A DNA stretch of 64,000 nucleotides from Trypanosoma brucei (Eukaryota). The notes under the pieces were generated by a model. It searched no databases. It was not told the DNA's origin and saw only the letters and a list, made by a program, of their open reading frames with translations. Both the position numbers and the translations under genes were made by a program. The stretch lies in assembly GCA_000002445.1 (NCBI GenBank), contig CM000207.1, positions 1,664,001 through 1,728,000 on the forward strand, in the 5' to 3' direction. Position 1 is the first letter of the stretch; every line of letters starts with the position of its first letter. Shown piece by piece: positions 1,302 through 60,060 of the stretch.

Positions 1302-2108
1302 TCAGTCGTCACTGTCCAACTGAGCAAACTGTTCTGCCAACAGAAGTCGATCGAATATGTGGAGCAGTTCCTCTTCATAGTTTACCTCGTGGCGCTCGTT
1401 AAGCTCAGCTTCAACCCGTAAAATCCGAAGGTCACGAGTTGTGAGATGGTAAGGTGCGCAGCGCAGTACATCCATATACTGGTCAATTGATAGCAAAGAA
1501 GTATCGGATCGGTCAGCGAAGCGTAAAAGTTTCAAAAATTCCTGCTGCACGTCAATCCTTGAAAGCCCATGTACAGTGGTATCCTCGCGGTTGCTCACCT
1601 GAAAGTTGTGCTCGGTACTCCAAACGAAACGCAACGCTGGAAACGACTCACACGCGAACTCTGCATAGTTCACTGGTTCCTTCTCAACCAGTTGCGTGGC
1701 CGTCAGAACATAGAGAGCTTGGGGAAGAGTTAATCCGTATGATTTGAGTAAAGCCTCCTTAATCGCCTTCACGGGTAGAACCCCATTGTTTTCGCTATCA
1801 TGTTCAACAAACATATCTATATATTGCTGCAACCGCTCCCCATATTCCTCCTCTTCCTCCTCCCGTGTGTTGGGTCGTGATTCGAGGTGTGGCAACGCTG
1901 GTGCCGTCATACGATGCTCTCCGGCAGGTTTTGCGTCCATCTCACGTGCTAGTCGTTTGAAGTAGTTGGCACTCCACTGCAAAATATCTTCCGGTTGCTC
2001 CCGTAGCACCTCGCGGGCATATTCCTTCAATACCCCAGGAAACTCGGGTGGGAGGTGTTGACGCGGTTGATAACGATTGGCTAATGTGCGCTCACGGAAT
2101 GTTTCCAT
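1302..2108 (-). CDS. RIIa (PKA regulatory subunit dimerisation/docking)-domain protein, likely flagellar. The first in-frame ATG is codon 4 of the ORF-track entry; the codon at 2117 is TTG.
   Basis: The N-terminal motif LPPEFPGVLKEYAREVLREQPEDILQWSANYFKRLA matches the RIIa/DPY-30 docking-domain consensus. There is an acidic stretch EEEEEEY. A purine-rich (= minus-strand polypyrimidine) tract lies just upstream at 2122-2155. Confidence 0.7.
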   Translation of the reverse strand: METFRERTLANRYQPRQHLPPEFPGVLKEYAREVLREQPEDILQWSANYFKRLAREMDAKPAGEHRMTAPALPHLESRPNTREEEEEEYGERLQQYIDMFVEHDSENNGVLPVKAIKEALLKSYGLTLPQALYVLTATQLVEKEPVNYAEFACESFPALRFVWSTEHNFQVSNREDTTVHGLSRIDVQQEFLKLLRFADRSDTSLLSIDQYMDVLRCAPYHLTTRDLRILRVEAELNERHEVNYEEELLHIFDRLLLAEQFAQLDSDD

Positions 2109-3130
2109 CGTACCCAAAGTGGAAAAAAGAAAAAGAATAGAAGAATAAAGAAACTATTACTACCTCTTTCCTCCCTTTGCCTTTCTTTTCTTATTTTTTT
2201 TCCACTGGTGTTGAAAAGAACTCGCAGCAAAAGCGTGAAACGCAGGGGTCTCTTGATTCCCTTCGGTGTGGGCCTCCTCCACTACTCTAACTATTATTTA
2301 TTCTTTGAATGGCACCTTTTTTGTACACTCGCTTCTTCTTGATTGCTAGAAATAAACCAAGCGCCAAAGTGTTCTAGTGCGTTGTACTTGGATGGTATCG
2401 CTCTGGATACCACAAGAAAAAAAAAGTGGGAAAGCGTGAGGTGGGTTGGCGAAAAAAATAAAAAAAGAAGAGAAAAAAAACAAAGTGCGGAGAAGTCAAC
2501 TGCGACAAGTGTCGAATGCATAAAGTCGTCAACAGAAAAGAAAAAAACAGAGACAAGGGCAAAGAACTGCGCACGCGCACGCGCACAAGCTGCACAAACA
2601 GGCATGCGTGTAGTGGTAGTAGTAAAACTATACGAGTTAATTGCGGCAATGTCTGCCCCGGAGGCCGTGAACCAACCACCAAATTAGGAGGAAGGAGACG
2701 GAAGAAGAAGAAGAAAAGACAGTGTCGTGGAATTCAGAATTCAGCAAAACACAAACGGGGGGAAAATTAGACTACACTAAAGATAAAAAAAAAGATGTAA
2801 GTGTTTAGCCGCGGCCATGTATACGACTCTTCCCACTGTTGGATAAGGAGGTTGATGTGTAAAGTGGTCTATGGGGTTATTTTTCAGTTGCTATAGGCCT
2901 CTCATCCGCTGCTGTTCCTTTTTTGCTCTTTTACTTCACACGATTTAGGAGCATATGTATACATGCGTCAAAGACTGCTTGCGGCTAATACATTCAAAGA
3001 AATGTCTCATGGTTCAACGAATGATAACCGCAACTCGCAGACCCACACATGAAATGCGACAGCAGACGGAAACGGAAAAAAAAATAAAAAAAAAGAGAGG
3101 GCTATCTGTAATTCTTTACGTACATCACTT

Positions 3131-6100
3131 TTACACGCCACCGTAGAGCATCTGGTTGAGTTCCTCCGAAAGGGGGAATTTTTCCTCATCAAGCACCTCA
3201 CAAACTCCATTACTGCGCACAATAAACTTTCTGTTGTCATCCAGCCACCGTAACTCGTATTTCCCGCCTACAAACACCTGCACAGCCCCGTTGGAGAGCA
3301 TAAAGCCACTCATAGAGTTTTCCATATGGAAGCGGTACCAGCGAACAAATACAAAGGGATCACCATTGCATTGAAATGCTGTTTGTGGTGGGCAATAAAC
3401 AGACATAATACCGGGAGACCGCCGCTGTTTTAACATATGTGTGTCGTGGGTTTCGACCAATTGAAGGACATCGTAGATCTTCTTCTCCTCATTCAATGCT
3501 TGTGCCAACGACAAGATACGCGCCACGTCATTATCTTCCTCGATATCAACACGATCTACGACGTATACGATGTGTTCCAACACTGACAGCACAGCTGAGT
3601 GCACAGAAAAACTATGGTTGAAAAATGTAACACCAGTACGTCCCGGCTGAATATGATATGTGACAGCGACTGAGTCGCCTCCTTCTTCCTCCATAGGATA
3701 AAAGTGGTAGTAGCGTATCCAATCACCGTTAAGCAGCATGTGACGTTCCTCAGGTGTGGGTGGGACACTCCGAGACCCGACAGAGAGACGCTCCATCGGT
3801 TTCCATTCACCACTTAGCGTGCGGGGTATTCCTTCGAACCTCCTTGGCGGCGGTACAACTTCCGATTTACTCATTGACAAACGCTCTGCCTTCCTCCGCG
3901 CCACAATTCCCACTACCTCAGCCGCCGGCTCTCGAGACCTCTTGCGTTCCAGTGCTGGCACCGATGCTCGTCGTTTCGGCCGACCACGCTTCGGACTGAC
4001 TGGTTTCACCTCCAACCGACTTTTTACACCAGTCCTAGCAGCTTCGGTTGGAACACTACGACTGCGACGCCCCTGAGATCTCCCCCTTGGCTTGTTCACT
4101 GTAGCTGCATCATTTAGCCTCTTCACGCACGAGCAACTGTGCCTGCGAAGCGCACCTGAACTGGCAAACTCCCTGCCGCAGGCGTCGCAGGTGTAATTAT
4201 TGGCATACTCCTCGTAACATTTTGGACACATGTCCCTACCGCATTGGCAGTGAAAGAAGTACATACTTGATCCAACTGGTTCGAATTCAAAACAGCAGAC
4301 ATCACATACGAAGCCGTACCTGTACTTCTTGTTTGCGCGACCCATTTCCCTGAATGTATGCGGGTGAGTGGCGGACTTTCGCTGCTCTTTCTCCAACCAC
4401 ACCATATGCTCTCGATCAAATAACTCCGTCACGACAGTGGATAGCCGGGTCACCATGCATGAATGCTCTAAGAGTAAAAGCGACGTTTTGACGTTTCGCA
4501 CAGCATTCTCCATGGTAACAAATCCTGATACAACCTCCGCCCCATTCCCCTTCTTTTTACGGGCCGTAACAGTGCTGCCTCGCCTTGCCCCAACTCCATG
4601 GCTATTGTTCCCTCCCCCTCGTTTGGTATCAACCGTATGTTCAATAGGCGATGTGCTCCGTTGCACAGTGCCATTTGCACTTTTTGGCTTGGGATCTCTT
4701 TTCCCCACGAGATTTATACCCTTCGCTCGATCCACATTGTTCGAACGAGGTTGACGCCCCTGTGGTGAGCGCTGGCCGATATTCAATCCTGTTTTCGTCT
4801 CTTCTTTGCCCTCCGCCTCCAACAATACCAATGAGGCTGCGGCACTGCCTGTAGGGAAATCCGCATTTCCACGGCCTTCCGTTGTGCAAGGAACAGGCGT
4901 TACTGTCCTACTTCTTGCATTCACGCGAGAGTTTGCACGTGACGCTGACGAAGCCGCGGCCCTAGCGGATCTCGACCTGCTCCGTTTCAGGCTCCTCTCT
5001 GTTTCCTCGGCTATAACAGACGAAATCTCACGAATAGGCTTTTTCACTTTAGGGTCGGGCCTTACATCGTAGACTTGATGTATCGGCACACCACCCACCG
5101 ATAACTCCTCCCTAGCGACGAATTTCAAAGACGAACGGTGTCCCTCCTCCGTCTCTTCCTCGTCAGAACCTCTTATTCTGCTTTCTGTGAGGCTTGCGTT
5201 CACATCGGCACTTCGCTGCTCGACAGCACGCAGCAAATGAGACTCATCGTGCGAAAGTAGAAAATCATCCTCCACGCCGAGGAAAGTAGTTACCACCCTT
5301 GGGGTTGCTCTGCGCCTATCGCCCCATTCCGGTCTCATGAGGAGAGCGTTGATATCTGGACGATTTTGTGGATCAGGGACAAGGACGAAGTCCACAAGTC
5401 CCCGTAGCTTCCTGGAGACGCTACAACCACTAGGCCACGACCATTCAGCGGCAGCGACACGACGAAGCAACTCAGCGTTTTCCTTCGGTATTTCGTGGGA
5501 CTGCTTGTCATTCGGAGAGGCGTCGGTGGGTATGGCAGCAGTGTTATGCATATTGGTGTCAGCAGTTCTCTCTGTCATCCGCGGGGCACCTGTGGAGGCA
5601 TACGGATTCCGTTGTGCGAAAATTGAAAAAAGCACCATTCCCACAGACCACACATCTGCTGCCGCACCAACGCTAACTCTCTGATCCCTGTGTAAAGCGT
5701 TATGAGCCATCTCCGGGGCCATGAATGCGATAGTGCCAGCGACTACATCTCCAGGAGGAGGGTTCCACACAGACGTCGCAAGTCCAAAATCTATGAGTTT
5801 TAAGTTACCATCCAAATCGAAGACAAAATTCTGAAGTTTAACATCCCTGTGGATGCAATGTTGTTCATGGACGTACGCCACTGCTTGCACTACTTGGTAT
5901 GCAACGAACAACTTGTCCGCCTCATCTGTTAGACACTTTGACAGAAGGAAGTCATGCAGTGTGTGTGGGAAACACAATTCCATCCCCACAGCCATGAGGT
6001 CCCCGGACTTATTCAATGCACCAAATAAAAACCGTGGCAGCAGGAGTTTTCCTTTTGTGCAGACCCTTCCAAGCACTTCCAGTTCCTGCTTGAGCCGTGT

Positions 6101-6307
6101 AACCTTTCCTGTTGTAATCTTTAATGCCAATCTCGGATATTCATCACAAGAGGCTCTGTAAACGGTGCCAAAAGAACCTTGTCCAATGCGTTCGCACGCC
6201 TCCAGGGATAAACACTTTCCTTGAGATGAATCACGAGAAGGCAATCGCACCCTCACAGCACGCACGCAGCCCTCCTCGTACAATATTTGTTCTACTGTGC
6301 CAATCAT
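3131..6307 (-). CDS. Ser/Thr protein kinase with an N-terminal kinase domain, a central Cys/His cluster (C2H2-like) and a C-terminal region with two polo-box-like motifs. The first ATG is codon 6; the codon at 6322 is TTG.
   Basis: Kinase motifs: GQGSFGTVY, ALK, HRDVKLQN (non-canonical catalytic loop), DFG and APE (FMAPEM). The cluster CDVCCFEFEPVGSSMYFFHCQCGRDMCPKCYEEYANNYTCDACGREFASSGALRRHSCSC is C2H2-like. The C-terminus reads W..Y.F...VAVTYHIQPGRTGVTFFN... and FVRWYRFHMENSMSGFMLSNGAVQVFV..., resembling the polo-box W..Y...G.GY.LSNG.VQV.F consensus. Confidence 0.75.
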   Translation of the reverse strand: MIGTVEQILYEEGCVRAVRVRLPSRDSSQGKCLSLEACERIGQGSFGTVYRASCDEYPRLALKITTGKVTRLKQELEVLGRVCTKGKLLLPRFLFGALNKSGDLMAVGMELCFPHTLHDFLLSKCLTDEADKLFVAYQVVQAVAYVHEQHCIHRDVKLQNFVFDLDGNLKLIDFGLATSVWNPPPGDVVAGTIAFMAPEMAHNALHRDQRVSVGAAADVWSVGMVLFSIFAQRNPYASTGAPRMTERTADTNMHNTAAIPTDASPNDKQSHEIPKENAELLRRVAAAEWSWPSGCSVSRKLRGLVDFVLVPDPQNRPDINALLMRPEWGDRRRATPRVVTTFLGVEDDFLLSHDESHLLRAVEQRSADVNASLTESRIRGSDEEETEEGHRSSLKFVAREELSVGGVPIHQVYDVRPDPKVKKPIREISSVIAEETERSLKRSRSRSARAAASSASRANSRVNARSRTVTPVPCTTEGRGNADFPTGSAAASLVLLEAEGKEETKTGLNIGQRSPQGRQPRSNNVDRAKGINLVGKRDPKPKSANGTVQRSTSPIEHTVDTKRGGGNNSHGVGARRGSTVTARKKKGNGAEVVSGFVTMENAVRNVKTSLLLLEHSCMVTRLSTVVTELFDREHMVWLEKEQRKSATHPHTFREMGRANKKYRYGFVCDVCCFEFEPVGSSMYFFHCQCGRDMCPKCYEEYANNYTCDACGREFASSGALRRHSCSCVKRLNDAATVNKPRGRSQGRRSRSVPTEAARTGVKSRLEVKPVSPKRGRPKRRASVPALERKRSREPAAEVVGIVARRKAERLSMSKSEVVPPPRRFEGIPRTLSGEWKPMERLSVGSRSVPPTPEERHMLLNGDWIRYYHFYPMEEEGGDSVAVTYHIQPGRTGVTFFNHSFSVHSAVLSVLEHIVYVVDRVDIEEDNDVARILSLAQALNEEKKIYDVLQLVETHDTHMLKQRRSPGIMSVYCPPQTAFQCNGDPFVFVRWYRFHMENSMSGFMLSNGAVQVFVGGKYELRWLDDNRKFIVRSNGVCEVLDEEKFPLSEELNQMLYGGV

Positions 6308-6760
6308 ATCCAAAAAATGCAAGTGTACTATCTCCCTTGCGCTTTACTGGTAATATATAATTAATAAATAAAGAACAAGAGGGGGAAAAAAGGAGAGTAA
6401 CCAAAAACAATGTAACAACAACAAAGGAAAGGAAAGGAAATTTACCAATGACTGTGTTATTGTTCCTTCTTTTTTCTTTCTTCTTTTTTTCTTGATCCTT
6501 TTCTTTTTTTTCTTCTCGTGCGTGTGGCAGTGAACACAATTGTTTATTGATGTGAATTGCGAAAAGCAACAACAACAACTTCAGCAGATAGGTGGAAAAC
6601 CGGTCACAAAAGTAGAGTGCAAAGGGGTGAGAAGTTACCCGCTACTAATCCCCGAGCTGTAAAAAAAAAAAAAAGCAACGGAGTATAATTTTCGAAGGAA
6701 AAAAGCACCAGGAGTCACGAAATAAACAAAAATAAAAATATATATATATATGCAACACCA

Positions 6761-7099
6761 TCACAAACTCTCAGAGAACGACGGATGCGCTGCTGCACAG
6801 ATAAATTCATCCCGCACCTTCTCATCTGTCAGGCACTGTAAGAAATATAATATTTTCACCGATTTTAGTTTCTTCCGCATTGCAGCAGTCGCCGAATATT
6901 TATGCAGCACTTCCCGAAGATATGATTGGACTTCTTCATTTAAAAGCGACGAGCAAAGCGCTGCACCGCTAGTAGGCATGAGCGAATGCGACACAATCAA
7001 ATGAATAGCACGCGCATTGGAGAAACATTCATTTAAAAGTTTAAGTTCGTTTTGCTCCCTTGTGATATCAGCGGATGCTTCAGCAGGAATATGTTCCAT
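6761..7099 (-). CDS. Candidate small hypothetical protein (112 aa) inside a long intergenic spacer
   Basis: ATG at 7097-7099. The ORF is non-repetitive and protein-like (MEHIPAEASADITREQNELKLLNECFSNARAIHLIVSHS...), on the same strand as the surrounding transcription unit. There is no recognisable domain and the third codon positions are AT-rich. Confidence 0.3.
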   Translation of the reverse strand: MEHIPAEASADITREQNELKLLNECFSNARAIHLIVSHSLMPTSGAALCSSLLNEEVQSYLREVLHKYSATAAMRKKLKSVKILYFLQCLTDEKVRDEFICAAAHPSFSESL

Positions 7100-7146
7100 A
7101 CCCTTATGTTTTTATTTCCTATCCAACACACATATATGTGCGTATT

Positions 7147-7147
7147 A

Positions 7148-7216
<69 letters not shown>
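7147..7216. repeat. (TA)n microsatellite, ~28 perfect units plus an imperfect lead-in
   Basis: Read directly: tatatacatatatatatatatatatatatatatatatatatatatatatatatatatatatatatatat. Confidence 0.95.
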
Positions 7217-7218
<2 letters not shown>

Positions 7219-10115
7219 TAGTAATAGATCTAAAGCACTCGAGTTGTATGCCCATTGCGGTGACGCATCATATGGGTGAAGAGATAAAAATTAAAAAAAA
7301 AAAATAAAGAAAAGAAAAGAAGGTAAAAGTGCGATGAAGATCAAAACATAAAAACTACAAAAAATAAAATAAAAGCGTTTCACTCAGCACATAAAGGGTA
7401 CGAGACAGTCAGACAATACGCAAAGGCGATGAATTTGAAGGTGATCAAACTTTGTCGATGAGTTTCCTTTGGTTTGGTTTTTTTAAAAAAAAAAACAAAG
7501 TCAAATAGAAAAAATGGAAAGGAAGGGAAAAAAAAAGGAATAGGAGTACGAAGCATCAGAAAGGAACATTAAAACCAAACAAACAAATTTCTTCCCTTGC
7601 ATGTGTACACGTGCCCAGCACAATAGATAATTAGTATTGGAAAAGAAAAATAGCGGGACAACTGAGACGAAACAACCAAAGGCACTCAGCAACCCGCTTG
7701 TCACAAAGTTGCAGTGAGAAAAGAGTTAATTGACAACAACAAAAAAAAAAAAAACAGCACCCCAAAACAACACCAACAACAACAGAAAAATAAAAAAAAA
7801 ACATGAAACAACAAAAGACGAAACTATACGCCATTTGATGCGGCGTCACGGCTACTGCTAAAAGAAACAAAAGAAATCACACTATAATTCAGGCGTAAAA
7901 AAGAAAATGTCAAAAACAGACATATCACCAAAAACTACACCGATCCCTCTCCTGCCAGAGCCCATTTTTTTATACGATCTTCAGGGGAGCGTAAACATAA
8001 TCTTAAGAAAAAAAAAAGGAAAAAAGTGTTAGTGTTAAACATGAAAAAAAAGAAAAAGAGCAGCAACAACAACAAATGAAAAGACGTTTAAAGTATGTCT
8101 CCCATGTTTCACTGTGTGCCACATATCTTTCATTTTCTTCTTCATTTCCTCCTACACGCGCAAGACAAAAACAAACGAAAACAAAAAAAAAACAAACACA
8201 TTCGAAGAAAAAAAAGAATGAGGAAACAAACAAACATTCACATATCCCTCTAAAACAAGGGTTAGGGTGAGACACCCCCGCCCCCTCCCAAAAAAAAAAA
8301 AACATTTAACACCTATGCGTTATTTTAGTTTCATCTCCCACCTCCTTCAATATGCATATGCATATCACCTCTTTATTTAATTGTTTCTACACCCCCTTTT
8401 TTTTTTTACATATTTCCATTGTCGCCATTACACACACGCATACGCATACGCCTATATATATATATATATATATATATTATATTTCACTTCTTTTTTGCCT
8501 CTTTTTTCATCCTTCTTTTTTCCAAAAAGGAAGTTGATTTGAATCATTCATTTTTCGTTGTTTTCCCCCTTTATTTATTTCCCCCTTCTCATTCTTCAGT
8601 GAGACGTATACGCAACGAAAGTTAAGTGCAGCTGATGAGTTAATGAACACACTGCTGTGAAGAGAGACAGACACACACACAAGCGCAGATAAGAGTGAAA
8701 AAAATGAAAATAAATGAATGAAAATAAGCAAAAGGAGGGAAAGAAAAAGAAAAAAGAAAAAATTTCTTGCATGCGTAAGACGAGTACATAGACGCACAGA
8801 CACATGATGTCAAAATGTAGCGCGGATGAAGGAGGCATCCGCAACAACAAAAAAAAATATATATATATATATTCATTGCAGGAATATACAACAAGGGGGA
8901 AAATCGGAAATTGTAAACTAAAACAAAAATCACCACTTTTCATTTTTGTTCCCCCTCCCCTTTCTTTCTTTTTCTCTCCCTTCTTTTCTTCTTTCCTCTT
9001 TTTTTTTTTTTCGCTCACCGTCACTAATTAAAACAACACCTCCCGCACACGGACACATCCCTCTCCCTCTTCCCCTTCCACCGATTGGATGCAAAAATTA
9101 AAATAAAATAAAACGTAAATAAGTAAGTAACAAATTTTTAAAAAAATGAGACGGAAAGGCAGACGGGAAATTGAATGCAGAAAGGGTGAAAAATAAAAAT
9201 AAAAATAATAGTAATAGTAACAATAAAGATAATAATGATAATCATCATCATCACAATAATCATCCCACCACTAAGCAAAGAAGAAAAAAAAGGTACGTAA
9301 CAACGCTTGAAGGAAAACAACAAAAAAAGTAGGATGGAAGAGTTTAAGGAAAGGAAAGGTAAGGTAAGACTGGATTCCGTGCAATTACACTCAAAAGTGC
9401 ATAAGCAAGCAAACAAACACACATAAATAAATATGTGTATATGCGCGTAAAGGACAAGAACATCTTTTACTTCATTCCTCTCGCTGCTTCCTTATATTAG
9501 AAAAGGTTAACAGCGATTCCTCTTCTTTTTGCTTTTCTCTTTCCATCCCCGCCCCGCCTCCTCTGTTTTTTTTTTCCTTCTTCTTTAATAGGCTTAGGCA
9601 TTTGTTTGGTGGTATTTGTGGCATTTCCCCACGCCGCTTCATATTGTTTGTTTTGTTTTGAAAAAAAAAAAAGTGGAAAATTATCAAAAGTAATAGAACG
9701 TGTAAGTGGCTAATGTCGAAAGACAGAAGCGGGTCGGAACAACAACAAATCATAAGGCCAAATAACCAGCTGTTTGATCATTTAACCCAACCCGAAACAT
9801 ATATATTTACTTATTTATTTTATATATGTGATATTTACATCTATATGCAACGAAAAGAAAAAGAAGCAGAGCAACCGGAAGAAACAAATAAACGTAGGAG
9901 GCATAAGCGCATCCTCTCCTTCCACTGTTTTCTCTCCAGATTCTTTTCATCCTTTGGATTTTTTTGGATTCTCCTCCATTCTCATTTTCTTTCCTTCTTC
10001 TTCCCCTTTCCCCCCCCCATTAACTTAAAAAAAAGAGAAACAAAGACCTCCCCTACCCCATTTCATGTCTTCACTCTCAGTCCCCTCATTTCGTTTGGTA
10101 ATTGAAGTGTATACT

Positions 10116-17446: not shown

Positions 17447-18109
17447 CTAGCACGCACAATCGCTTTTCTTTGTACTAGGCCTTTGTTGGCCCAATCTGAT
17501 GGATTGCGGCAACGCCACCCCCTCTTCCGCAGTAGCTTTCTTTGCTAGCGCAGCTTTACTTACCGTTAAGAACGCCTCTTCCACGCCCACATTTGCCTTT
17601 GCTGATGCTTCAAAGTATTGAATGGATCCCATCGTTTCCTCCCCAGCAGCTGCACCTAAAGAGGCATCACCACCTTCCCCATTTTTTAGTGATTCACACC
17701 AGGCTTCTGCCGTGCGACTGGTCACCTGCCGGCGCTCCGTCAGGTCCGATTTGTTGCCAATCAGCACACATTCCCGCTGGCCCGCTTGAGCGCGAAACTC
17801 TTCCAACCACGAATTAATGTGAGAAAAGGATTCCGAATCGGTAAGGTCAAACACAAGAACACATGCGTCAGCTCCACGATAAAAGGCAGAGCCAAGTGAC
17901 TGGAAACGCTCCTGCCCAGCTGTGTCCCATATTTGCAATGTGACAAGTTTGCCATCGATCTCCACATCCCTCGTGAGAAAATCTGCACCTATCGTCGCCT
18001 TGTACCGGTTGTCAAAGTTTTTATTCACATATTGATGCACCAACGCAGTCTTTCCGACACCGCTATCCCCAAGAATAATTATCTTCAGCAACTGTCGGTT
18101 TGGAGCCAT
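17447..18109 (-). CDS. RAB7: Rab7 small GTPase
   Basis: GDSGVGKT P-loop, effector region YKATIGADF, WDTAGQE, GNKSD and a C-terminal CAC prenylation motif. The sequence is highly similar to Rab7 family members. ATG at 18107-18109. Confidence 0.9.
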   Translation of the reverse strand: MAPNRQLLKIIILGDSGVGKTALVHQYVNKNFDNRYKATIGADFLTRDVEIDGKLVTLQIWDTAGQERFQSLGSAFYRGADACVLVFDLTDSESFSHINSWLEEFRAQAGQRECVLIGNKSDLTERRQVTSRTAEAWCESLKNGEGGDASLGAAAGEETMGSIQYFEASAKANVGVEEAFLTVSKAALAKKATAEEGVALPQSIRLGQQRPSTKKSDCAC

Positions 18110-18412
18110 CTTTCTTTTCCCCCCTCCTTCCTTCCCTTTTTTTTGTTGTTGTTATTATTCTTGTTTCCTTCGGTTCCTTCAATTCAATGTTTCCGCACCC
18201 TCCTCCCTAAATTCACCCGTAGACCCAACGCTCCGGCACAAACGTAAGAGGCACTTGCACTCTACCTTTCCCTTTTAAAGAAAAAAAAAATCTGTAGTTT
18301 GCGGTGTTTAAATCCCTAAAAGTTGCGTTTCCAATAATATTTGTATTTTCTTTTCTTCCTCTGTGTTGTTTCTGCACCTTCCCTTTGGTGCAACTCACCT
18401 TGTCACCTTTTC

Positions 18413-18413
18413 A

Positions 18414-18445
<32 letters not shown>

Positions 18446-18446
18446 A
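18413..18446. repeat. Compound (TA)n(TG)n microsatellite
   Basis: Read directly: atatatatatatatatatatgtgtgtgtgtgt. Confidence 0.9.
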
Positions 18447-18866
18447 CGTGTATATGTGTTTTTGCTTTTTTTTCCTTTTTTTTTGTGTGTTTCTCACCAG
18501 CACTTGGGTGATTTTGCTTCAATATGGGGCTAACGTCAAAGTAGTTTAAAGGCACGAGGGCAATTCAACAACGTACACCACACGAAAGTGATACCAAAAG
18601 GTGGGGAAAAGTGTTGATACAAAACCACAAGAAATAAATAAAGCAAAACAAGAAGAATGAGATGGAGGAAAATAATAATAATAACAATAGTAATAACAAT
18701 AGTAGTAATAATAATAGTATATATGGATTGCGTAAAGAAGAGAATTGGAACAAATCAAATAAAAGAAAGGGCGACGACAGCAGGTAGTCTCTGCCACCTT
18801 CCCTCTCACTTACATGAAAACACACACACACACACATGCATACGCATATAAGCGCAACCACCAACG

Positions 18867-18892
18867 GCAGAAGCAGCAGCAGCAGCAGCAGA
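18867..18892. repeat. (GCA)n trinucleotide repeat in an intergenic spacer
   Basis: Read directly: gcagaagcagcagcagcagcagcaga. Confidence 0.9.
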
Positions 18893-21800
18893 AGGATAAT
18901 TAATGTGCTGGTGTGGTGGAGGAAAGAAAGAAAGAAAGAAAAACTACATTAGTAGTCGATTCGAGTGGTGAGAAAACAGAAGTTTAGCCACAAAGAATCC
19001 CCGTGAGGGGTGTCCCGCAGGTTACAGCCACGGTCATAATAGTAATAATAGTAATAATAATAAGTCTTGTCACTGTCTTGTGCACATGCACACATGGATG
19101 CACATTCACGCATCACCGCATAAACGTGTAAATATACCTAAATACAAATACACGTACCTCTGGCTACGAGGACAGGGAGTACGCGACAAAACCAGAATGA
19201 TAATAAAGAAAAACACACACACACAAAAAAAAAAAAAAGCCCACCCCCTCCACACACACACATTCAAAGAAAATGACAAATATAAAGACAAAAACAGAGA
19301 AAGAAGAAGTAGCCAAATGAATCGGGTGGCGACGGAGTGAAGAGGCAGTATGGCAATTTTCATATTACTTTTTCATTTTTTTTACCTTAACCCCCTTGTA
19401 GTCTTCTATGCTATCACTGTCAACCTTCTTTTATTTGCTTTTTTTATTTGTTTTCTTTACTTCTTGTTTATTTCTTTATTACTTACTTTCTTTCTTTATA
19501 TTGCATTGCCTCACTCGCAATTTGAGGATAGACAGATAGAGATAGAGATAGAGATAAAGAGAAGGAAAGGAAAGGAAAGAAGGAGAGAAACAAAAATGTT
19601 TACACTTTCCTGCAACCTCTTATGCGTCACCCCTCTTACTTAACTTGGCAAACAAATATTTGCAGTTAATGTTCTATTTTATTCACACGTTGAACTTACA
19701 CATTTTGCTCCATCATCCCAACACACGCCCCACCCCTTTCTCCTCCTCCTCCTCCTCCAATCTGAAGTCACTTAATTAACTAAAAATAAAAAAAAAGTAG
19801 CACCAACCAAACGCTAATTTCTTCTATCTCTCTTTTTTTTTATTATTATTCTTTTCTTTTACCATCCTTTTTCTTTTTTTCTTCTTCCTTCTTTTTATCT
19901 TGAATTTTCAATTTCATATAAAAGCTCGGTAGTCGTTTGCTCGTCCCACCGGCGCCAGAGCACTATTATCCCCACCAGAAGCAAACCAATCAAAACAAAA
20001 CAATTTAAAAGGAAAAAAAAAGACTCGGGTTAAACGAAGGAATCAAATAAAAAAAACAATAAAATCAGCGGCAGAAGAAAAATAATAACAGTAATGACAA
20101 TAACAACAGCAGTTATAACAATAATATAAACAAAAAGGAAATGATGAGAAAGTTTGGAAGCATCATACCCACACGCAAATATACCGGCGTTGCTTCAGAG
20201 AGGGGAAAAAAAAAGAAAGAAACAGTAAGGAAGAGAAGAAATAAACATGAATGTACCGCGTCACGAAAACCGAAGCCGAGGAATTTACGAAACAAAAAAA
20301 AAAAAGAAAACAAAAAAAGAAAAAAAGGGGAAAAAATTGTCTATTTGCACGCACAAATACCCCTTATATATAAATATATAAACACACAAATTTATATATT
20401 TATATTCACCCGGAACAACAGCAACCACGCTATCCGCGTAAAAAAAAAATGTGTTAAAAGATTAGGAAACAGCACCGAAGGGAGAAAAAGAAGAAGGGAA
20501 AGAAGGTAAAAAAAAAACACATAAACATAAACACAAAAAAATTAAGGGTAGGGAAAAAAAAAGCAAGAGGAAGAGGAGACGGCAACCGATTGTGAGGTGC
20601 CACAAATATGACAACGCGAACGCGGGGCAAAAAAAAAAAAAAAAGAAAATCACAAGGAAAAAAACTAAAAATAGAGAAGAGAAAAAAAAGAGAAACATAA
20701 AAATACATTATGATAACAAAATACTTAGATATGTATTTTGTTACACTCATTACTTCATGCGCAATGCCGAACCCAAATTTAACGGGGATGCAAATCCCGC
20801 CAACATTCCGTATTGGAGGATTACCGAAGGGGGAAAAAAATCACAAAAAACCAAACGAACAAAAAAAAGAGAAAGAGAGAGAAAGAGTAGAACAAAACAA
20901 AAGACTACACGCCCGTATATATCTATATATCTATATATACATCCGTGCATTTATATATATCTATATACTTTTATATTTTTAAAAAAAAACACATTACACA
21001 ATTAAAATTAAGCTATAAATCGCTCCTTCGCCGCGCGACTTTCCTCCCCCCTCCCCACCCAAATTTGTTTCCCCCGCCTCTTCGAAACCGCACACCACAG
21101 GGGGGAAAAGTTAAAAAAAAAAGGGAAGAAATCCAAAATAATCACAAGAAGGAAATCATAACATCGTCCCTGCTTTTCTTCTCCCACGTCAACATCACCA
21201 CCACTACGTATAAAATTGAGAGGCACCAGAAAAATAATGCCCAGAACCCAACTGGCGCTCAAACACAAATAACAACGGCTTTTATAATTTCACTCTCTTT
21301 TTTTTTCTTTCTTCCTTCCTCCCCAAGTCATTCCATCAAGAATTAAAGAAAAAAACATAACCTTCTTTCCTCTTTTTGGTCTTCCTCACCCACACCGGTT
21401 TTATAATTCACACACTAACATTATAAAATCATTTCCATACACGGACGCCACACGTCCAGTTGGTGCAAATAATAATAATACCACTCTCACGCACCTCCTT
21501 CCTCATCCCAAAACAACAAAAAACAAAAACAACTTAAAGAAAAAGAAAAAGAAAAAAAAGGAGAAACAAGTAGACAAGAGTTGCTAATCAGCAATGGAAA
21601 TAGCTTTGAAAATCAAAAGAATGGATGGGCAAATTAAAGAAGAAAAGGAGACTTGTAAATAACACCAAGCGTACCCCCCCCCCACCCATCCCCACAAATT
21701 AGCGTGGAACGCTCCCTCACAATCATCAAAATAAGGGAAAACAGAGTAAATTAAAAGTATGAAAGAAAAAAGAAAAGAAAAATGAATAAAACTACAATAG

Positions 21801-21951
21801 AACGAAAAGAACTCAAAGCGATACAAACATCTACGGCAACGCGAGACATGACTGGAGTGGAAACAGCAGCGGAATTGTCATTCTACGTTAACCTCCTCTC
21901 CTGTCTCGAACTTATAACAGCACCGCAAGTCAAAGCCATGCATACACACAC

Positions 21952-22962
21952 CTAAAACCCACGGAACTCCAATTGTTGTGATGGTGCTAACGGGGGCAAC
22001 CGCTTATCCCCACTCTCGGGATACGACTCAAAGTTACTTGTGTCGCCGGGGCTCTTCACTTTTACAGGAATGGGAGCGTGATAATGACGTCCATAGAGTT
22101 TCTCCCAATTCGCACCACGGAAGAATGGGTGATTCTTCACATCAGCTACGCCATCCTTCAGCGTGCCCAACCGTTTCGTGTGATCCGTTTGCAATAAACC
22201 CTTTACGAGATCCCGCGCACGGGAGTCAAACCAATTGGGGAATTTGAACCGGCCCGCAAGAATCTTTTCATACGTCCGAATTGGGGTTTCATCAAAAAAG
22301 GGAGGATGGCCAGCTATGAATTCATACAGCAAAACACCCATCGTCCACCAATCCACAGCCTTCCCATGTCCTTTGCTCTGAATTACCTCAGGTGCAAGAT
22401 ACTCAGGTGTCCCACATAACGTATAGGTACGATCCGTCACCTTCTTAGCAAAACCAAAATCAGTCACCTTGACGTGTCCCTTCCCATCAAGTAGCAGATT
22501 CTCAGGTTTCAAGTCACGGTAGATAATGTCCTTCGAGTGTAAATATTCAAAGGCCAACACAAGCTCCGCATGATAGAACTTCGCTACGTCATTCGGGAAA
22601 CGGCCTGCGGAACGAAGGTGAGTAAATACCTCACCACCTACCACAAATTCTAGAACAAAGTAGACGCGGTTCTCATCCTGGAAGGAACACATCATGTTCA
22701 CAATGAAGGGGTGTGACAACTCCATTAGAATTTGCTTCTCTTGGTTCAGGTGTTGTACCTGCTTCATCTTTAGTATCTCACGCTTCTTTAGACATTTTAT
22801 TGCATAATACTCCCCCCTGCTCTTCAGTTTTGCAATGCGCACGCGACCAAACGAGCCGGTCCCTAGCGTGTCACCCATTTCAAAGTCACTCAGCTTCCAT
22901 CCCGATGTGTCAGGTTTGGTAAACACATACGTTTGCGGTTCCGTCGACGTGGCTACAGGCAT
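21952..22962 (-). CDS. PKAC2: cAMP-dependent protein kinase (PKA) catalytic subunit, paralog A (~336 aa). The start is the internal ATG at MPVATSTEPQTY; the ORF-track upstream extension is low complexity.
   Basis: A full AGC-kinase catalytic core: GTGSFGRV, AIK, HRDLKPEN, DFG, GTPEYLAPE and a C-terminal FxxF-like tail (FRGF). From about codon 14 (FTKPDTSGWKL) onward it is near-identical to the second copy at 36593..37597. I assign PKAC2 versus PKAC1 by position relative to PRP8 and RAB7, from my memory of T. brucei chr9 gene order; that assignment is uncertain. Confidence 0.85.
   Translation of the reverse strand: MPVATSTEPQTYVFTKPDTSGWKLSDFEMGDTLGTGSFGRVRIAKLKSRGEYYAIKCLKKREILKMKQVQHLNQEKQILMELSHPFIVNMMCSFQDENRVYFVLEFVVGGEVFTHLRSAGRFPNDVAKFYHAELVLAFEYLHSKDIIYRDLKPENLLLDGKGHVKVTDFGFAKKVTDRTYTLCGTPEYLAPEVIQSKGHGKAVDWWTMGVLLYEFIAGHPPFFDETPIRTYEKILAGRFKFPNWFDSRARDLVKGLLQTDHTKRLGTLKDGVADVKNHPFFRGANWEKLYGRHYHAPIPVKVKSPGDTSNFESYPESGDKRLPPLAPSQQLEFRGF
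21955..22925. repeat. PKAC duplication unit copy A, a ~970-bp near-identical direct repeat
   Basis: The proteins are near-identical from FTKPDTSGWKL to the C-terminus. The antisense ORFs over this tract (21978..22247 vs 36580..36888) are also near-identical, showing the identity is at the nucleotide level and not just the protein level. The flanks diverge immediately outside the CDS. Confidence 0.8.
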
Positions 22963-23316
22963 CCGCACTACCAGTACCTGCTCAAGCTCTGTCAAAAAAG
23001 AATAATGTATAAATAAATGTAGACTTACGTATGCAACAAAATAGCTTATTTTTGTGGAGAAAACAAAAACGGAAAGAGGAGTAAAGGGTTCTTCGACAGT
23101 ATTCAAAATATAAAAAAGTAACACCAACAGCAGAAGAAGGAAAGGCAAAAGGGAGAACAAGAGTGCGCCCGTGACCTCCCTCCGATATTCATTGAAATTC
23201 TGTAACAATGTAAAAATTTGGGAGGTGTTTCCCCTTTAAACGACAAGCCGACCCCTCCACCACCGAGAGGGGGAAGAGATGAAGAATTATGCACCAACTA
23301 TGTTATATATTGCCTT

Positions 23317-27759: not shown

Positions 27760-29397
27760 CTAGCGGCGCTGGTTGGGCTGCTTCGCCTGCTGCTGTTGTG
27801 CGAAAAGCACTTGTGTGCCGGGAGGAAAACCTGTGGCACCCACAGTGTATGGTGCCGTACCATCCGCGGGGCGGTAAAACATCATCGGTTGCTGAGCCTG
27901 ACTAGGCACAAAACCTGCAACATAATGGCCGGGCATGGCCGGCTGCGCGTAATACGGTGCTCCTTGAGCGCCACTCACAATTATTGGAACGGGTTGAGGG
28001 ACGCCAGTTTGACGGTGCTGCGGCTGCGGTGGAGCTTGCACCAGTTTTTGCATTTGTTGTGGTGCAACCTTCTGAACGGGAACCCCCCACGGCATTTGGA
28101 CAGGCTGTTGCTGCGGCCGTTGTTGCTGTGGGACATGTGCAGGTAGTTGGGTTGTCGACATTTGTGGCGGCGTCATATGGCCGGAAACCGAAAGTAACGG
28201 TGGGGCCCCTGTGACGGGTACAGCACTTCCTGGCATTTGAGACATGACCGCTGCCTGCGGCTGAGTCTGTGGGCGACCCAAACTTTGCTTCACCTGCATG
28301 AGTAACTGCTGCTCCAGGGCTGTTGCCTCAATAGGTTTACTTTCCACCTCCGGTTGCCTGCTCACCTTCTGCTCGCTAATGAGTCTCTGCTCCAAATCGT
28401 GAGCGTTCCACGTGCGGGGTTGGTTTGACGCCGATGTCTCGGTGGGTTGTGTAGCTGGCGCACGGGCACTCGTAGCAGCACCCGCTTCCACCGAAGGCGC
28501 TGCGGGTACCGAGTGCAAAACTGCTGGTTGCATCGATGGCTGTGTTGGCACCGCGCCCGCATGCTGGGTCGGTGCTGTCGACGGAACACCTAAGGACAGA
28601 CTACCGGTCAAAAGTGAATTCATACCTACATTGGCGGAAGGATTCTTACGTTCAAGCGCCGCATCAACGCCGGTGGGCTTCGAAGCTTCCACATTGTTCC
28701 ACACAACGTTACCGCTCGCTGGGACCATGGACGGCAAGGCCCACGGGTCTTTGACCTGATTCAAAGAGGCACTTGTCAGGGGTTCTGATATTGCCTGCAC
28801 CAGAGGAGCAGAGGTAGGGTTTGTATCCTGGAAACCAGAGTTTGCCCCAGAGAAGAAGCGTGACTTGGCTACTTTCTTCCCCCCCTCACCACTTGGTGCT
28901 ATGCTAACCATCAACCGTTCTATCTCATCGTCAACCTCTGCCTTTACTTCAGTTCTGGAGGGGGAAGAGGGACCCCATTTGTTGGTGTCGTTTTTGCCCT
29001 CATCCTTTGAAGAGGCTGCAGCGTCACTCCTTTGCTTCTCCCTCTCCATGGTTTCCTGCAGTGCCTGCTTCTTAATGGCATTCCGCTCCAACTCATACTT
29101 GTACCCCTCTTCGAATGCTTCCTGATCCCTGCTTCCCCTCCAAGAACGGGATGGGGGAGCAAAGCGTTCGCTGTTTGTTGCCCGCTTCGATGCTGGCCCA
29201 AGCGCTCCATTTTTCGAGTCGGATGACTTTTGACCGGTGGCGTCGTGGCGGGTTCCATCCGGCGAAGAGGACTGCACGGGGCACTCCGTTTCGATTATGC
29301 TGAATTTCTGTAGTACCTCCTCGCTCAAGGTGAATTCTTCTGGTCTCGGTGCAAGTGAGAGAAGTTCAGGGCGAGTGTATCGAATTGTAGTTCTCAT
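27760..29397 (-). CDS. 4EIP: eIF4E-interacting protein-like (4EIP-like) with an N-terminal YXXXXL-phi eIF4E-binding motif. The start is the ATG at MRTTIRYTRPELL; the codon at 29401-29403 is TTG.
   Basis: The N-terminal YTRPELLSL fits the canonical eIF4E-binding motif Y(X)4L-phi. The rest is Q/P/A/S-rich low complexity (QQQRPQQQPVQMPWGVPVQKVAPQQMQ...), typical of kinetoplastid 4EIP. Its position between the two PKAC copies matches T. brucei chr9. Confidence 0.7.
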   Translation of the reverse strand: MRTTIRYTRPELLSLAPRPEEFTLSEEVLQKFSIIETECPVQSSSPDGTRHDATGQKSSDSKNGALGPASKRATNSERFAPPSRSWRGSRDQEAFEEGYKYELERNAIKKQALQETMEREKQRSDAAASSKDEGKNDTNKWGPSSPSRTEVKAEVDDEIERLMVSIAPSGEGGKKVAKSRFFSGANSGFQDTNPTSAPLVQAISEPLTSASLNQVKDPWALPSMVPASGNVVWNNVEASKPTGVDAALERKNPSANVGMNSLLTGSLSLGVPSTAPTQHAGAVPTQPSMQPAVLHSVPAAPSVEAGAATSARAPATQPTETSASNQPRTWNAHDLEQRLISEQKVSRQPEVESKPIEATALEQQLLMQVKQSLGRPQTQPQAAVMSQMPGSAVPVTGAPPLLSVSGHMTPPQMSTTQLPAHVPQQQRPQQQPVQMPWGVPVQKVAPQQMQKLVQAPPQPQHRQTGVPQPVPIIVSGAQGAPYYAQPAMPGHYVAGFVPSQAQQPMMFYRPADGTAPYTVGATGFPPGTQVLFAQQQQAKQPNQRR

Positions 29398-30811
29398 TGT
29401 CAACCCTACCTTGATTCGATCACTAGTTAGTTCTCTGTTAATTTCTTTTTTCTTTTTTTTTCCTTTTTTGGAGGGGCAATTCTTTTTCCTTTTTGTTTGC
29501 CTAAACCCGTTCCCCTATATCGCTATTCAGATACAATGTTATACCACTTCTCTGGGTTTATCACACTGCTATTATTAGTAACAGAAATAGGTTCTTCTTA
29601 TTCCTTTCACCCGAAAAAGATAAATAATCAACCCAGAGGACGTCCCTGATCCTGTCGTGTGGGTCGCCGCTGATCCTACTTTTTTTTTCTTCTTTCACAA
29701 AAATTCCCCTTCACCTGATTTTTTTTAATATTTCACCTTTTTGTCGGTGATTGATTGTTTTTTTTTAATTTTTGTTGTCTTGTTGTTGTTGTTGTTGTTT
29801 TTTTTTTTTGCTTAATTTCTTTTTTCTCTTTCAATTTAACTTTTTTTTCCTTTTCTTTTTGTTTCTATCTTTTTAACAGTAAAAATAATGATTTAACAGG
29901 AGAGCGAAAATTATCTTTCCTTCTTTTCGTGGAAAGTTCGGGTCAAAGTAAGTTTCGTTCAGTTAGGCGATCAGACAATCGCTTGGCGGTATACTTTAAA
30001 AAAAAAACGTTTGCGTTGAGGAACTGAGTCCAGTAAGAACACACATAAATACAAAGAACAAGTTAATGAAGAAAGAAAATGGAAGATGAAAGTGCAAATA
30101 TGAATGTAAAGATGGTGTGCGAACAGCAACAAAATGGTGGAAACGAAAAAAGAAAAGAAAAAGAAATGTGGGGTGATAGTGTATATACAAATGGAAACAT
30201 ATCAGGAAGGGGGAAAAAATTGCGACAATAGTAGTAAGAGTATTGGCGCCCAGATGACACACCCGACCACATACTTATTGATTACTCCGCTGGTACCGCA
30301 AACGCACAGACGCGCACCAGTGTATGTTTTATTACGCGCAAGGTTTCCTTTTGACATCCTCTTTTTTTACGACCGCACCACCACACACGGGTCGCATGGT
30401 AACAGTTAATACCCAATAATCGGCACTGCACTCGCGGTAACTCTTGAAAAGAGGCGGGCCGCGGCACGGCCGCAAGGTGCGTATTTAACGCGGTAGTAAA
30501 AAGGGGGAGAAAAGGGAGAAAAGCAACAGAACGATGTGCCTCACGTGCAACTCGCTGCCTAAGCGGGAGAGAGAAGCGTTCCCGGAAACACGATACTGGA
30601 GCAGCCTCCTCCAGGTTGGAAAGGAGAAAAGATTCAGTAAATAAACAAGAAGCGCAATAGAGAAATGAAAGATAGATAGATAGAAAGGGTATGTTAAATT
30701 TCATTTCTATATACTTTGCCGCATATCCAGTGATTCACTCCATTCTCTTCTTTCACTTCATCGCCATTACCGTCCCTGCACAACCGCAACCACAACTACA
30801 ACCACACCACA

Positions 30812-32797
30812 TTACAACACAATGGGATGATCCGCCGTCCCCAACCGCAAACCTCTGCCAACATCACCATCCTGCGACGCCCTACTTCCATAGTCTCCAA
30901 CGTTACCCCCCACCCTCCCTCGTCTGTAAACAACAAACGCCTCCCCGTCATCGGACGAGTCGGCGCCAAGTTCCGCCAAACCAAAAAAGGAATCGCTGGA
31001 CCCGCCGCATGCAACTACAGGCTTGAGTGGTTTATTTACATCATTGCTGCTCTCGTCGTCATCGTCAAGAACGACATCTACAACACCACTAACACTCTTC
31101 TTAGGTACCCACCGAAATGGAACATAGTCTTCATCCGTTTCCGCTGTGCTTGCCGTGTGAACTGCAGCTTTTGCCTCCCTGTCGTTCCTGACAAGTTGAA
31201 GGTACGCGGGGCATTTCTCACCTGCTTGTTGCAAGCACCGCAGCAACACGGTGTCAACGCGGATGTCACGGGGTGCAAGCGGTGAGTCACAAAGTGGGCA
31301 GTTCCAGTAACATCCACTGTGACAACCCTGAAGAAAGGAGCGACAGTCAAAGCATTGAAGGTGAGCACAATGGGCACCACGGATTGGAATGCTAATGCGT
31401 GCTTGAGAAATGGGACACTTCGTTGTGATGACGGGGTTGTCCACTACCATCTCATCTTTTGACATTTCCTCGTCCTCTAACACGCTACGGTACATGGCGT
31501 ACAAACTAGCATCGCGCATATTCTGCGGGTTGCATAACGGCGTAACGATACTATTCATCACCTCATCTTGTGGTACCAACTGAACTACCAACAATGCCAC
31601 CTGACTAACGTACTCCTTTGAGGTCACAACAAATCCAAGCTCCTGAGTGTGGCAATTTCTATTCAAAAATTGTGTTATATCCAAAGGAAGAAGGGTTTTG
31701 GTTACTTCCTTCCGCCGCTCGGGCCACCGCCGCCTCCACATTGTCATGACCGCTTGGCCGTTCACTGTTACCGCAATTTCCTTTATTACCGGCCACGACA
31801 TGGGAATAAATGGCGGCCGGAAGGGTACCACGTGCAGACGAAGCCGTCTTGACGCCACTCCCTCCAAATACTGCTGAGGAACTTCAAAAGAGTGATTGGC
31901 GCTACCAAAACACAGCTGCGTTTTCATTACTACGTGTAGCACACGGTGGAAAGGGGAACTGACTTCGTTTATGGCTTCAACGGGAAGGTTGTCGTCAAGC
32001 GGCAGAGACAAGATTTCAACAGCTGCATTCCCCACCCCACGTGGTAGTTGGTATTTCAAGCGATGTCTTACTGGAGCTGCGTTATTATTAGATGTGGAAG
32101 GGGGGAAACTGGTTGACGCCTTCGCACCCGATGGCTCATTGTGCTTAAGCGGTGTAACTGTCGGTGGTGGTGGTGGTGGTGTAGTTGCGGAGTGAGCATC
32201 TTTCACTTGTGTAGCACCACCTCCAGCATCTTTCCGCGAAGCAAAGAAACAGTTTAATGCTGAAGCTCCCTGAGCCGCCAAATCCTTCATTCGGCTTTTG
32301 TTGTCTACCGTCGCCGCAAGCCTCAATTCCCCATGCTCCTCCAAAATATCCCTCAGTGCGGCCATTAGTTTATTTAGCTCATTTCTCCGATAGTACTTGT
32401 ATATGTCACCCGACTTGAATTCACGCTGAAACACGCGCATACTAAGCGGTTTGCCAACCACTGCCCTCTTAAGACGTAACCACACCTCACCACTAAAACC
32501 TCCGCCACATTGCGAGCTGTCGTCGCCGCAGTCACCGTCACTGAAGCCTTCAGCAACAGCGCTGGCCTCACTACCGTTATAACTACTGAGAGTACTGCCT
32601 TCATCGGCACATTCACTATGCCTGCTTGAAGTTGTTGCACTGGTTCCCGCAGTGCTTTCACCGCCAGTGAGGAAACCCACCACGCATTCATTACTGGGCG
32701 TGGGTGACAAATACACACGGCTTCGCTTCCGCAGAGAGTTGTCTCCATTGTCAGTTTCGGAGTCGGCACGTTTTCTGGTTGCAGGTCGGATCACCAT
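30812..32797 (-). CDS. SIZ1: SP-RING (Siz/PIAS-type) SUMO E3 ligase. The start is the ATG at MVIRPATRKR; the ORF-track M at 32818 is GTG.
   Basis: The SP-RING/MIZ zinc finger CPISQARISIPIRGAHCAHLQCFDCRSFLQGCHSGCYWNCPLCDSPL matches the PIAS consensus CP..........R...C.H.QCFD............CP.C. There is a poly-proline stretch TTPPPPPPTVTP, encoded by (GGT)n on the plus strand at ~32165-32185. Confidence 0.75.
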   Translation of the reverse strand: MVIRPATRKRADSETDNGDNSLRKRSRVYLSPTPSNECVVGFLTGGESTAGTSATTSSRHSECADEGSTLSSYNGSEASAVAEGFSDGDCGDDSSQCGGGFSGEVWLRLKRAVVGKPLSMRVFQREFKSGDIYKYYRRNELNKLMAALRDILEEHGELRLAATVDNKSRMKDLAAQGASALNCFFASRKDAGGGATQVKDAHSATTPPPPPPTVTPLKHNEPSGAKASTSFPPSTSNNNAAPVRHRLKYQLPRGVGNAAVEILSLPLDDNLPVEAINEVSSPFHRVLHVVMKTQLCFGSANHSFEVPQQYLEGVASRRLRLHVVPFRPPFIPMSWPVIKEIAVTVNGQAVMTMWRRRWPERRKEVTKTLLPLDITQFLNRNCHTQELGFVVTSKEYVSQVALLVVQLVPQDEVMNSIVTPLCNPQNMRDASLYAMYRSVLEDEEMSKDEMVVDNPVITTKCPISQARISIPIRGAHCAHLQCFDCRSFLQGCHSGCYWNCPLCDSPLAPRDIRVDTVLLRCLQQAGEKCPAYLQLVRNDREAKAAVHTASTAETDEDYVPFRWVPKKSVSGVVDVVLDDDDESSNDVNKPLKPVVACGGSSDSFFGLAELGADSSDDGEAFVVYRRGRVGGNVGDYGSRASQDGDVGRGLRLGTADHPIVL

Positions 32798-48041: not shown

Positions 48042-48439
48042 GCGTCTGCCGCTATTTTTGAATCCTTCGACAGGGGTAACACACCTATGCTTCGCTATGC
48101 AGCACGATAGATCAAACAGGTAATTGTTTCCTCTCCTTTTGGGTGTGTTCTGACCCACTTAACTACGCTTATATTCATGCACATGCATGTTTGGCAAAGT
48201 ACGGATACTAAACGGTTGAGCGCTTGGGGCAAACAACAGCACGTGCAATTACGCAGACACTTACACACAGATACGCAGGAAAGGGAAAAAAGTAGTGGAT
48301 GTAGCAAACACCATTGTATCCAAACGACAACGTGCATATGCAAACGAAGGAATAGCACATCCCCTCTGGGAGCAGCGTTGTATGGTTTCAGTGTCCCTTT
48401 CTTTCCTCCCTGTTTTTAAAAGTATCCTACTACCAACAA

Positions 48440-59800: not shown

Positions 59801-60060
59801 TGCATATGCACGGCACTGAGTCTATTTGGCATCTGATGCGTCGGCAATGCACCTTTCGACGTTTTAAAGGGGTTCTGACTGTGCACTTATGTGTTGAAAT
59901 CAGGATGTGAACATTTTGGTACAGGGTACGTTCGCAGGTAGCGCCTTTCCATCCCTTTTGCTTCACAGTTCATATTTTACCACTTCAAAATTCTGTTTTT
60001 TCATTGTTTCCTTGATTTAGTGTAAAGTATTTTAAGCAGGGGCTCGACCGCCGTTATCTC
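53876..60060. promoter_or_regulatory. Divergent strand-switch region, the probable bidirectional RNA Pol II transcription start region. The ~5.5 kb core (54420-59950) is GC-rich, repeat-poor and ORF-free.
   Basis: Every credible gene below 53875 is on the minus strand and every credible gene above 60061 is on the plus strand. Between them there are only short overlapping ORFs on both strands, the pattern expected of GC-rich non-coding DNA. A purine tract at 54344-54368 and a pyrimidine tract at 59950-60055 are the presumptive first splice-acceptor regions. Confidence 0.7.

Follow-up and report, generated by a model that had tools for sequence, protein, structure and literature searches.

KKT3 of Trypanosoma brucei: a PLK-derived kinetochore kinase with divergent polo boxes and a centromere-targeting domain that binds zinc

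Does Trypanosoma brucei carry, besides its Polo-like kinase TbPLK, a second and much larger kinase equipped with polo boxes? The question is raised by a gene on the minus strand of a 64,000-nucleotide stretch of the T. brucei genome (assembly GCA_000002445.1, contig CM000207.1, positions 1,664,001 to 1,728,000; hereafter the window), in which a reading made from the letters alone had recognized an N-terminal kinase domain, a Cys/His cluster and a polo-box-like C-terminus. We conclude that this gene almost certainly encodes KKT3, which with its paralogue KKT2 makes up the pair of kinases at the base of the kinetoplastids' unconventional kinetochore, and that KKT3 is a PLK-derived kinetochore protein but, strictly speaking, does not belong to the PLK family.

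Identity of the gene

The coding sequence is complete (3131..6307, minus strand, as are all the features of the gene given below) and encodes exactly 1058 residues from the ATG at 6307, with the stop codon at 3131-3133. This is the length that the sequence-only reading had given as an approximation, and the motifs it had quoted are all present in the translation. In the program-made list of open reading frames (ORFs), the same frame extends over 3131..6322 and comprises 1063 residues from a TTG, its first ATG being the one at 6307. We rejected the TTG start at 6322, which results from applying bacterial start-codon rules; in the databases, the protein begins at the ATG at 6307.

The 1058-residue product is an exact match to EAN77039.1 / XP_827369.1 / UniProt Q38DT1 of T. 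brucei brucei TREU927 (exact-sequence lookup; 3.06-Mb contig). It is thus identical to T. brucei KKT3 over all 1058 residues, with no difference at the protein level, and the organism is T. brucei with a TREU927-type sequence. Furthermore, residues 847-1058 are 100% identical to chain A of PDB entry 8A0K (phmmer against the PDB, E=6.5e-145), which is the divergent polo-box domain (DPB) of T. brucei KKT3, solved from the construct KKT3 847-1058 and deposited by Ishii et al. 2022 (PMC9727816). The residue numbers used in the KKT3 literature (K63, M109, C668, C671, D692, C707, C710, 771-780 and W863) all fit our translation. Based on the exact protein match, the identity to 8A0K and the agreement of these residue numbers, we assign the gene to KKT3.

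KKT3 is therefore already known: papers of 2014-2016 described it, its domains were dissected in 2021-2022, and its exact C-terminal fragment has been crystallised. The architecture, which had been flagged as unusual, is indeed rare among eukaryotes without being new. The names carried by the protein in databases differ. T. equiperdum members of the same cluster are called 'kinetoplastid kinetochore protein 3', KKT3 and its close relatives appear in UniRef as 'Serine/threonine-protein kinase PLK', and the NCBI record for TREU927 still reads 'protein kinase, putative'. Three plus-strand ORFs of 102-128 residues overlap the gene, and these are taken to be chance frames in a region whose opposite-strand coding is conserved.

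An exhaustive HMMER search with residues 832-1058 against 1.84 billion representative proteins returned 30 relatives at E<=0.001, and most of the full-length ones share the catalytic-loop and CL-domain signatures described below. This number is consistent with a narrowly distributed family, while its restriction to kinetoplastids is taken from the literature and not from the HMMER search. A word-indexed search with residues 590-1058, in which scoring was limited to the 8000 candidates with the most words in common, gave 2 matches; our guess is that the Arg/Ser-rich linkers filled the candidate list.

The kinase domain and the divergent polo boxes

The N-terminal kinase domain (residues 38-325; 5333..6196) is intact, as had been read from the sequence. 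It is matched by Pfam PF00069 at E=4.8e-38 and its catalytic residues are all in place (K63, D155, K157, N160, DFG at 173-175 and APE at 197-199). The catalytic loop, at residues 153-160 (5828..5851), does read HRDVKLQN instead of HRDLKPEN. It retains the catalytic Asp and the Asn as well as the Lys typical of Ser/Thr kinases, and HRD[VI]KLQN is found in 15 of the 20 distinct homologues with a kinase domain, the other five deviating at one or two positions; the loop is a family signature, not damage. A Leu after the catalytic Lys (HRDxKL), as in KKT3, presumably occurs also in PLK1, whose loop we take to be HRDLKLGN.

According to the literature, K63 is the site of the kinase-dead mutant and M109 the gatekeeper of KKT3, and the recombinant protein phosphorylates KKT12, a subunit of the KKT8 complex, at the conserved T188/S192 in vitro. 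The K63A substitution, inhibition of an analogue-sensitive form and deletion of the whole kinase domain (KKT3 329-1058) are nevertheless all tolerated in procyclic cells, which grow and segregate normally. Such tolerance might indicate that KKT3 is in effect a scaffold, with a vestigial kinase that has no physiological substrate, so that nothing but the polo boxes and the CL domain would matter. We consider this unlikely, since every catalytic residue is intact, the HRD[VI]KLQN loop is kept in most of the family and KKT12 is phosphorylated by the recombinant enzyme; moreover, the authors of the mutant study see the conservation as suggesting that the kinase plays a part at further life stages or under different conditions. 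In our reading of KKT3 as a genuine kinase, its activity may serve a particular life stage, procyclic cells being able to do without it.

The DPB occupies residues 847-1058 (3134..3769), as defined by the identity to chain A of 8A0K and by an AlphaFold model. A model of residues 832-1058 computed from the single sequence was unusable (pLDDT 35.1), and the one used here was built on a 22-sequence family alignment (pLDDT 89.8, pTM 0.84). It consists of two units, each with six strands and then a helix, packed in a polo-box fold. By the secondary structure of the model, polo box 1 covers approximately residues 863-960 (3428..3721), starting at W863 and ending in a long helix, and polo box 2 approximately residues 988-1055 (3143..3346), ending in the C-terminal helix. 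W863 is invariant in the family alignment, and polo box 2 contains the conserved block YVRWFR...LLSNGxVQVFVGxEYELRW. The two stretches that had been proposed as polo boxes, VAVTYHIQPGRTGVTFFN (residues 880-897) and WYRFHMENSMSGFMLSNGAVQVFV (residues 990-1013), coincide with the opening strands of the two beta6-alpha units in this confident model.

Structural comparison of the DPB model with the PDB by Foldseek gave 8A0K as the best match (TM 0.88/0.97, rmsd 1.2 A) and 8A0J, the DPB of KKT2, as the second (TM 0.73). The remaining matches, among the 50 shown, were all polo-box domains of PLK1, PLK2 and Cdc5, at E values of ~6e-5 to 3e-4, TM scores of 0.45-0.53 and 11-16% identity. On the other hand, the Pfam POLO_box profile (PF00659), which had been suggested as a check, did not match KKT3 at E<=10, and the 22-sequence DPB profile searched against the PDB at the same threshold found no PLK polo box, its matches being 8A0K and 8A0J (E=1.9e-12) only. 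Prior work using jackhmmer and HHpred reported only marginal similarity. The sequence-only reading had thus rightly inferred polo boxes from the raw sequence where the Pfam profile gives nothing.

Is KKT3 then a second true Polo-like kinase that, in the manner of TbPLK, works at the basal body, the bilobe or the flagellum attachment zone and uses its polo boxes to dock on phosphorylated partners? Like human PLK1 and PLK2, yeast Cdc5 and TbPLK, it has a Ser/Thr kinase at its N-terminus and two beta6-alpha polo boxes at its C-terminus, and its UniRef name would agree. We regard this name as misleading, because KKT3 fails the POLO_box profile and is a distinct kinetochore protein. The family profile reaches no PLK polo box in the PDB, and the DPB resembles those of PLKs at a TM score of ~0.5 and low identity. 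The residues by which PLK1 binds phosphopeptides (Trp414, His538 and Lys540 of the human protein) are missing in the DPBs of KKT2 and KKT3, as published. Between kinase and polo boxes, KKT3 has a zinc-binding centromere-targeting domain that PLKs do not have.

The kinase domain itself is also without clear affinity to PLK. The best PDB matches were MELK, MAP2K5, MST, PAK, B-Raf, SNF1 and similar kinases, and no PLK was among the top 60 shown; MELK, MST and PAK as the nearest solved kinases agree with the literature, which classes the KKT3 kinase domain as unique among kinase groups. Finally, KKT3 is found at the kinetochore at all cell-cycle stages, where it is placed via its CL domain (Marciano et al. 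2021, PMC8178753). The three sites suggested by the sequence-only reading (basal body, bilobe and flagellum attachment zone) are thus wrong, and this published localisation refutes a TbPLK-like role; KKT3 is a structural, constitutive kinetochore component, which PLKs are not, and TbPLK is a separate gene. We therefore give the idea of a second true PLK practically no chance and keep to a PLK-derived kinetochore protein.

KKT2 has the same three-domain order as KKT3 and is, like it, a constitutive kinetochore protein. The similarity extends to the domains, with the DPB profile retrieving the T. congolense KKT2 structure 8A0J and the central domain retrieving the KKT2 structure 6TLY. The two proteins nevertheless differ in several respects. 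Their DPBs are only ~20% identical, and that of KKT2 binds KKT1C directly whereas that of KKT3 does not (Ishii et al. 2022, PMC9727816). The kinase activity of KKT2 is essential, unlike that of KKT3 in procyclic cells. As published, the CL domain of KKT3 uses a His at a shifted position as one of its zinc ligands, and the fourth ligand of the adjoining finger is a Cys in nearly all homologues retrieved with the KKT3 DPB. A Cys-rich region and divergent polo boxes are reported to be common to KKT2, KKT3 and KKT20, the last of which has no kinase domain.

As for its function, the KKT3 DPB is reported to be essential and to recruit KKT2 to an ectopic LacO site, and the W863A substitution abolishes this recruitment.

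The zinc-binding region and centromere targeting

The Cys/His cluster of KKT3 spans residues 645-727, and 11 of the 25 Cys of the whole protein fall within one 60-residue span from residue 668; this clustering is not chance. The sequence-only reading had taken the segments CDVCCFEFEPV (residues 668-678), FFHCQCGRDMCPKCYEEYANNYTCDACGREF (684-714) and LRRHSCSC (720-727) for tandem zinc fingers. While the dense cluster is real and conserved, it consists of a two-zinc CL domain (~645-701) and one C2H2-type finger (705-727), not of C2H2 fingers in tandem. Residues 650-727, covering both, match PDB entry 6TLY, the central domain of Bodo saltans KKT2, at E=2.6e-4.

We place the CL domain at residues 645-701 (4205..4375) from the sequence and the 6TLY match, with limits taken from the literature. 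It includes C668, C671 and the invariant D692, the last lying within CDVCC...HCQCGRDMCPKC (residues 668-697). The corresponding pattern CDxC...HCxCGxDxCxxC, with its invariant Asp, is kept in most full-length homologues.

The single finger (residues 705-727; 4127..4195) is recognized by subthreshold hits to Pfam zf-C2H2 families and by phmmer. In the suggested Pfam check, zf-C2H2_11 scored 19.8 bits, below the cut-off of 27; a phmmer search of the PDB aligned residues 704-724 (YTCDACGREFASSGALRRH) with classical C2H2 fingers at E=5e-6. The ligands are C707, C710 and H723, with C727 or C725 as the likely fourth: YTCDACGREFASSGALRRHSCSC follows C-x2-C-x3-F-x5-L-x2-H, and the fourth ligand must be a Cys (H723-x3-C727). 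What the literature calls a 'C2H2' finger thus ends in Cys, both in the T. brucei protein and in almost every homologue retrieved (C-x2-C-x12-H-x1-6-C), and a terminal Cys in place of His makes it, in KKT3, a C2HC variant. The deviation may not matter, since published mutants show that the finger is dispensable. Further downstream lies SPKRGRPKRR (residues 771-780; 3968..3997), an SPKK-like and AT-hook-like motif, the same residues being annotated by Marciano et al. 2021 (PMC8178753).

The finger and this motif might together target centromeres by sequence-specific DNA binding, given that residues 704-724 match classical DNA-binding fingers, SPKRGRPKRR is a motif of DNA-binding type and the central domain of KKT2 has been published to bind DNA in vitro. 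The mutants described by Marciano et al. 2021 (PMC8178753) make such targeting very improbable for KKT3. The C707A/C710A protein localises and functions normally and rescues growth, the AT-hook/SPKK motif is not required for localisation, and KKT3 594-728, which does not include that motif, suffices on its own for constitutive kinetochore localisation. In contrast, the CL domain is needed for both localisation and growth, and C668A/C671A as well as D692A/E abolish kinetochore localisation and function despite an intact finger. Centromere targeting is therefore attributed to the CL domain.

What the CL domain recognizes can be approached by comparison with KKT2. A 2026 preprint describes the KKT2 CL domain as a circularly permuted ZZ-like domain that binds histone H3 at its free N-terminus, binding being abolished by N-alpha methylation. 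It resembles the ZZ fingers that read the H3 N-terminus (for example p300 ZZ, PDB 6DS6), and their invariant Asp corresponds, as published, to D692 in KKT3. The KKT2 domain differs from them in its circularly permuted topology and its other order of zinc ligands, and no match of KKT3 to the Pfam ZZ profile was found at E<=10. The preprint authors propose that the CL domain of KKT3 also reads the H3 N-terminus, although the recombinant domain could not be purified. By analogy with KKT2, we give an even chance to the possibility that the KKT3 CL domain (645-701, with D692) reads the free, unmethylated H3 N-terminus.

In the mechanism we propose, the central two-zinc CL domain (~645-701; C668, C671, D692) keeps KKT3 at centromeres throughout the cell cycle, as the published mutants show, and would probably do so by binding the free, unmethylated H3 N-terminus as a circularly permuted ZZ-like reader, in the manner described for KKT2. 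The C2H2-type finger and the SPKK/AT-hook motif would probably contribute non-essential DNA contacts. The essential DPB (847-1058) serves as a protein-protein interaction module, probably independent of phosphorylation, and recruits KKT2 and other kinetochore proteins, so that assembly starts. The N-terminal kinase is active, phosphorylating KKT12 in vitro, while being dispensable for procyclic growth.

Several points weigh against this account. The identification of the gene was made on the protein. Sequence methods alone give no link between the KKT3 C-terminus and polo boxes, so that the case for homology to PLK is built on the fold and the order of the domains. The recruitment of KKT2 by the KKT3 DPB may be indirect. 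The activity of the kinase is known from the phosphorylation of KKT12 in vitro. Finally, binding of the histone H3 N-terminus has been demonstrated for KKT2 only.

Genomic setting and biological meaning

All ORFs of at least 250 residues lie on the minus strand from 1.3 to 53.9 kb and on the plus strand from 60 kb on, an arrangement that fits a polycistronic unit of trypanosomatids with a strand-switch region at its end. The last minus-strand ORF of this size extends up to 53875 and the plus-strand ORFs begin at 60061, and the change of strand between them (~53900..60000) suggests a divergent strand-switch region. The GC content rises to 0.52-0.55 at 56-60 kb, and the sign of the GC skew flips near 60 kb. 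Long inter-ORF stretches at 6001..10000 and 18001..22000, with a low GC content of 0.35-0.38 and a strongly positive AT skew of up to 0.40, are taken to be UTRs or intergenic regions within the polycistron. Neither tRNAs nor Rfam families were found in scans of the entire window.

The neighbours of KKT3 are ordinary eukaryotic genes, none functionally tied to it. They encode a DnaJ protein, a DEAD-box helicase, an alpha/beta hydrolase, a mitochondrial carrier and a WD40/Sof1 protein and, by domain matches on the minus strand, a protein with a RIIa domain (PKA regulatory dimerisation/docking; 1302..2117), an SP-RING/MIZ zinc-finger protein that is likely a SUMO ligase (30812..32818) and a SHIPPO PG-rich repeat protein (49497..50927). 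PRP8 is present as a minus-strand ORF of 2403 residues (37943..45154) with the full set of domains of this spliceosome protein, namely PRO8NT, PROCN, RRM_4, the U5 and U6 snRNA-binding domains, domain IV and PROCT. The ORFs at 27760..29403, 46233..48158, 51230..53875 and 60061..61131 gave no Pfam match.

Two further protein kinase genes, at 21952..23208 and 36593..37597 (minus strand), match Pkinase at ~E=1e-71 each and both carry YRDLKPEN. Their products are 94% identical over 334 residues, and they look like a pair of PKA-catalytic-subunit-like paralogues, separated by ~13 kb in which unrelated genes lie. The kinase at 21952..23208 is N-terminally extended in the ORF list, probably by the bacterial start-codon rule.

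Altogether, the architecture is remarkable from a biological point of view: in the absence of CENP-A, kinetoplastids build their kinetochores on PLK-derived kinases with a domain that binds zinc and targets centromeres. If the proposed binding of the H3 N-terminus holds true for KKT3, it would recognize a chromatin mark of centromeres in an organism that has no CENP-A. The kinetochore kinases of kinetoplastids are, moreover, considered drug targets.

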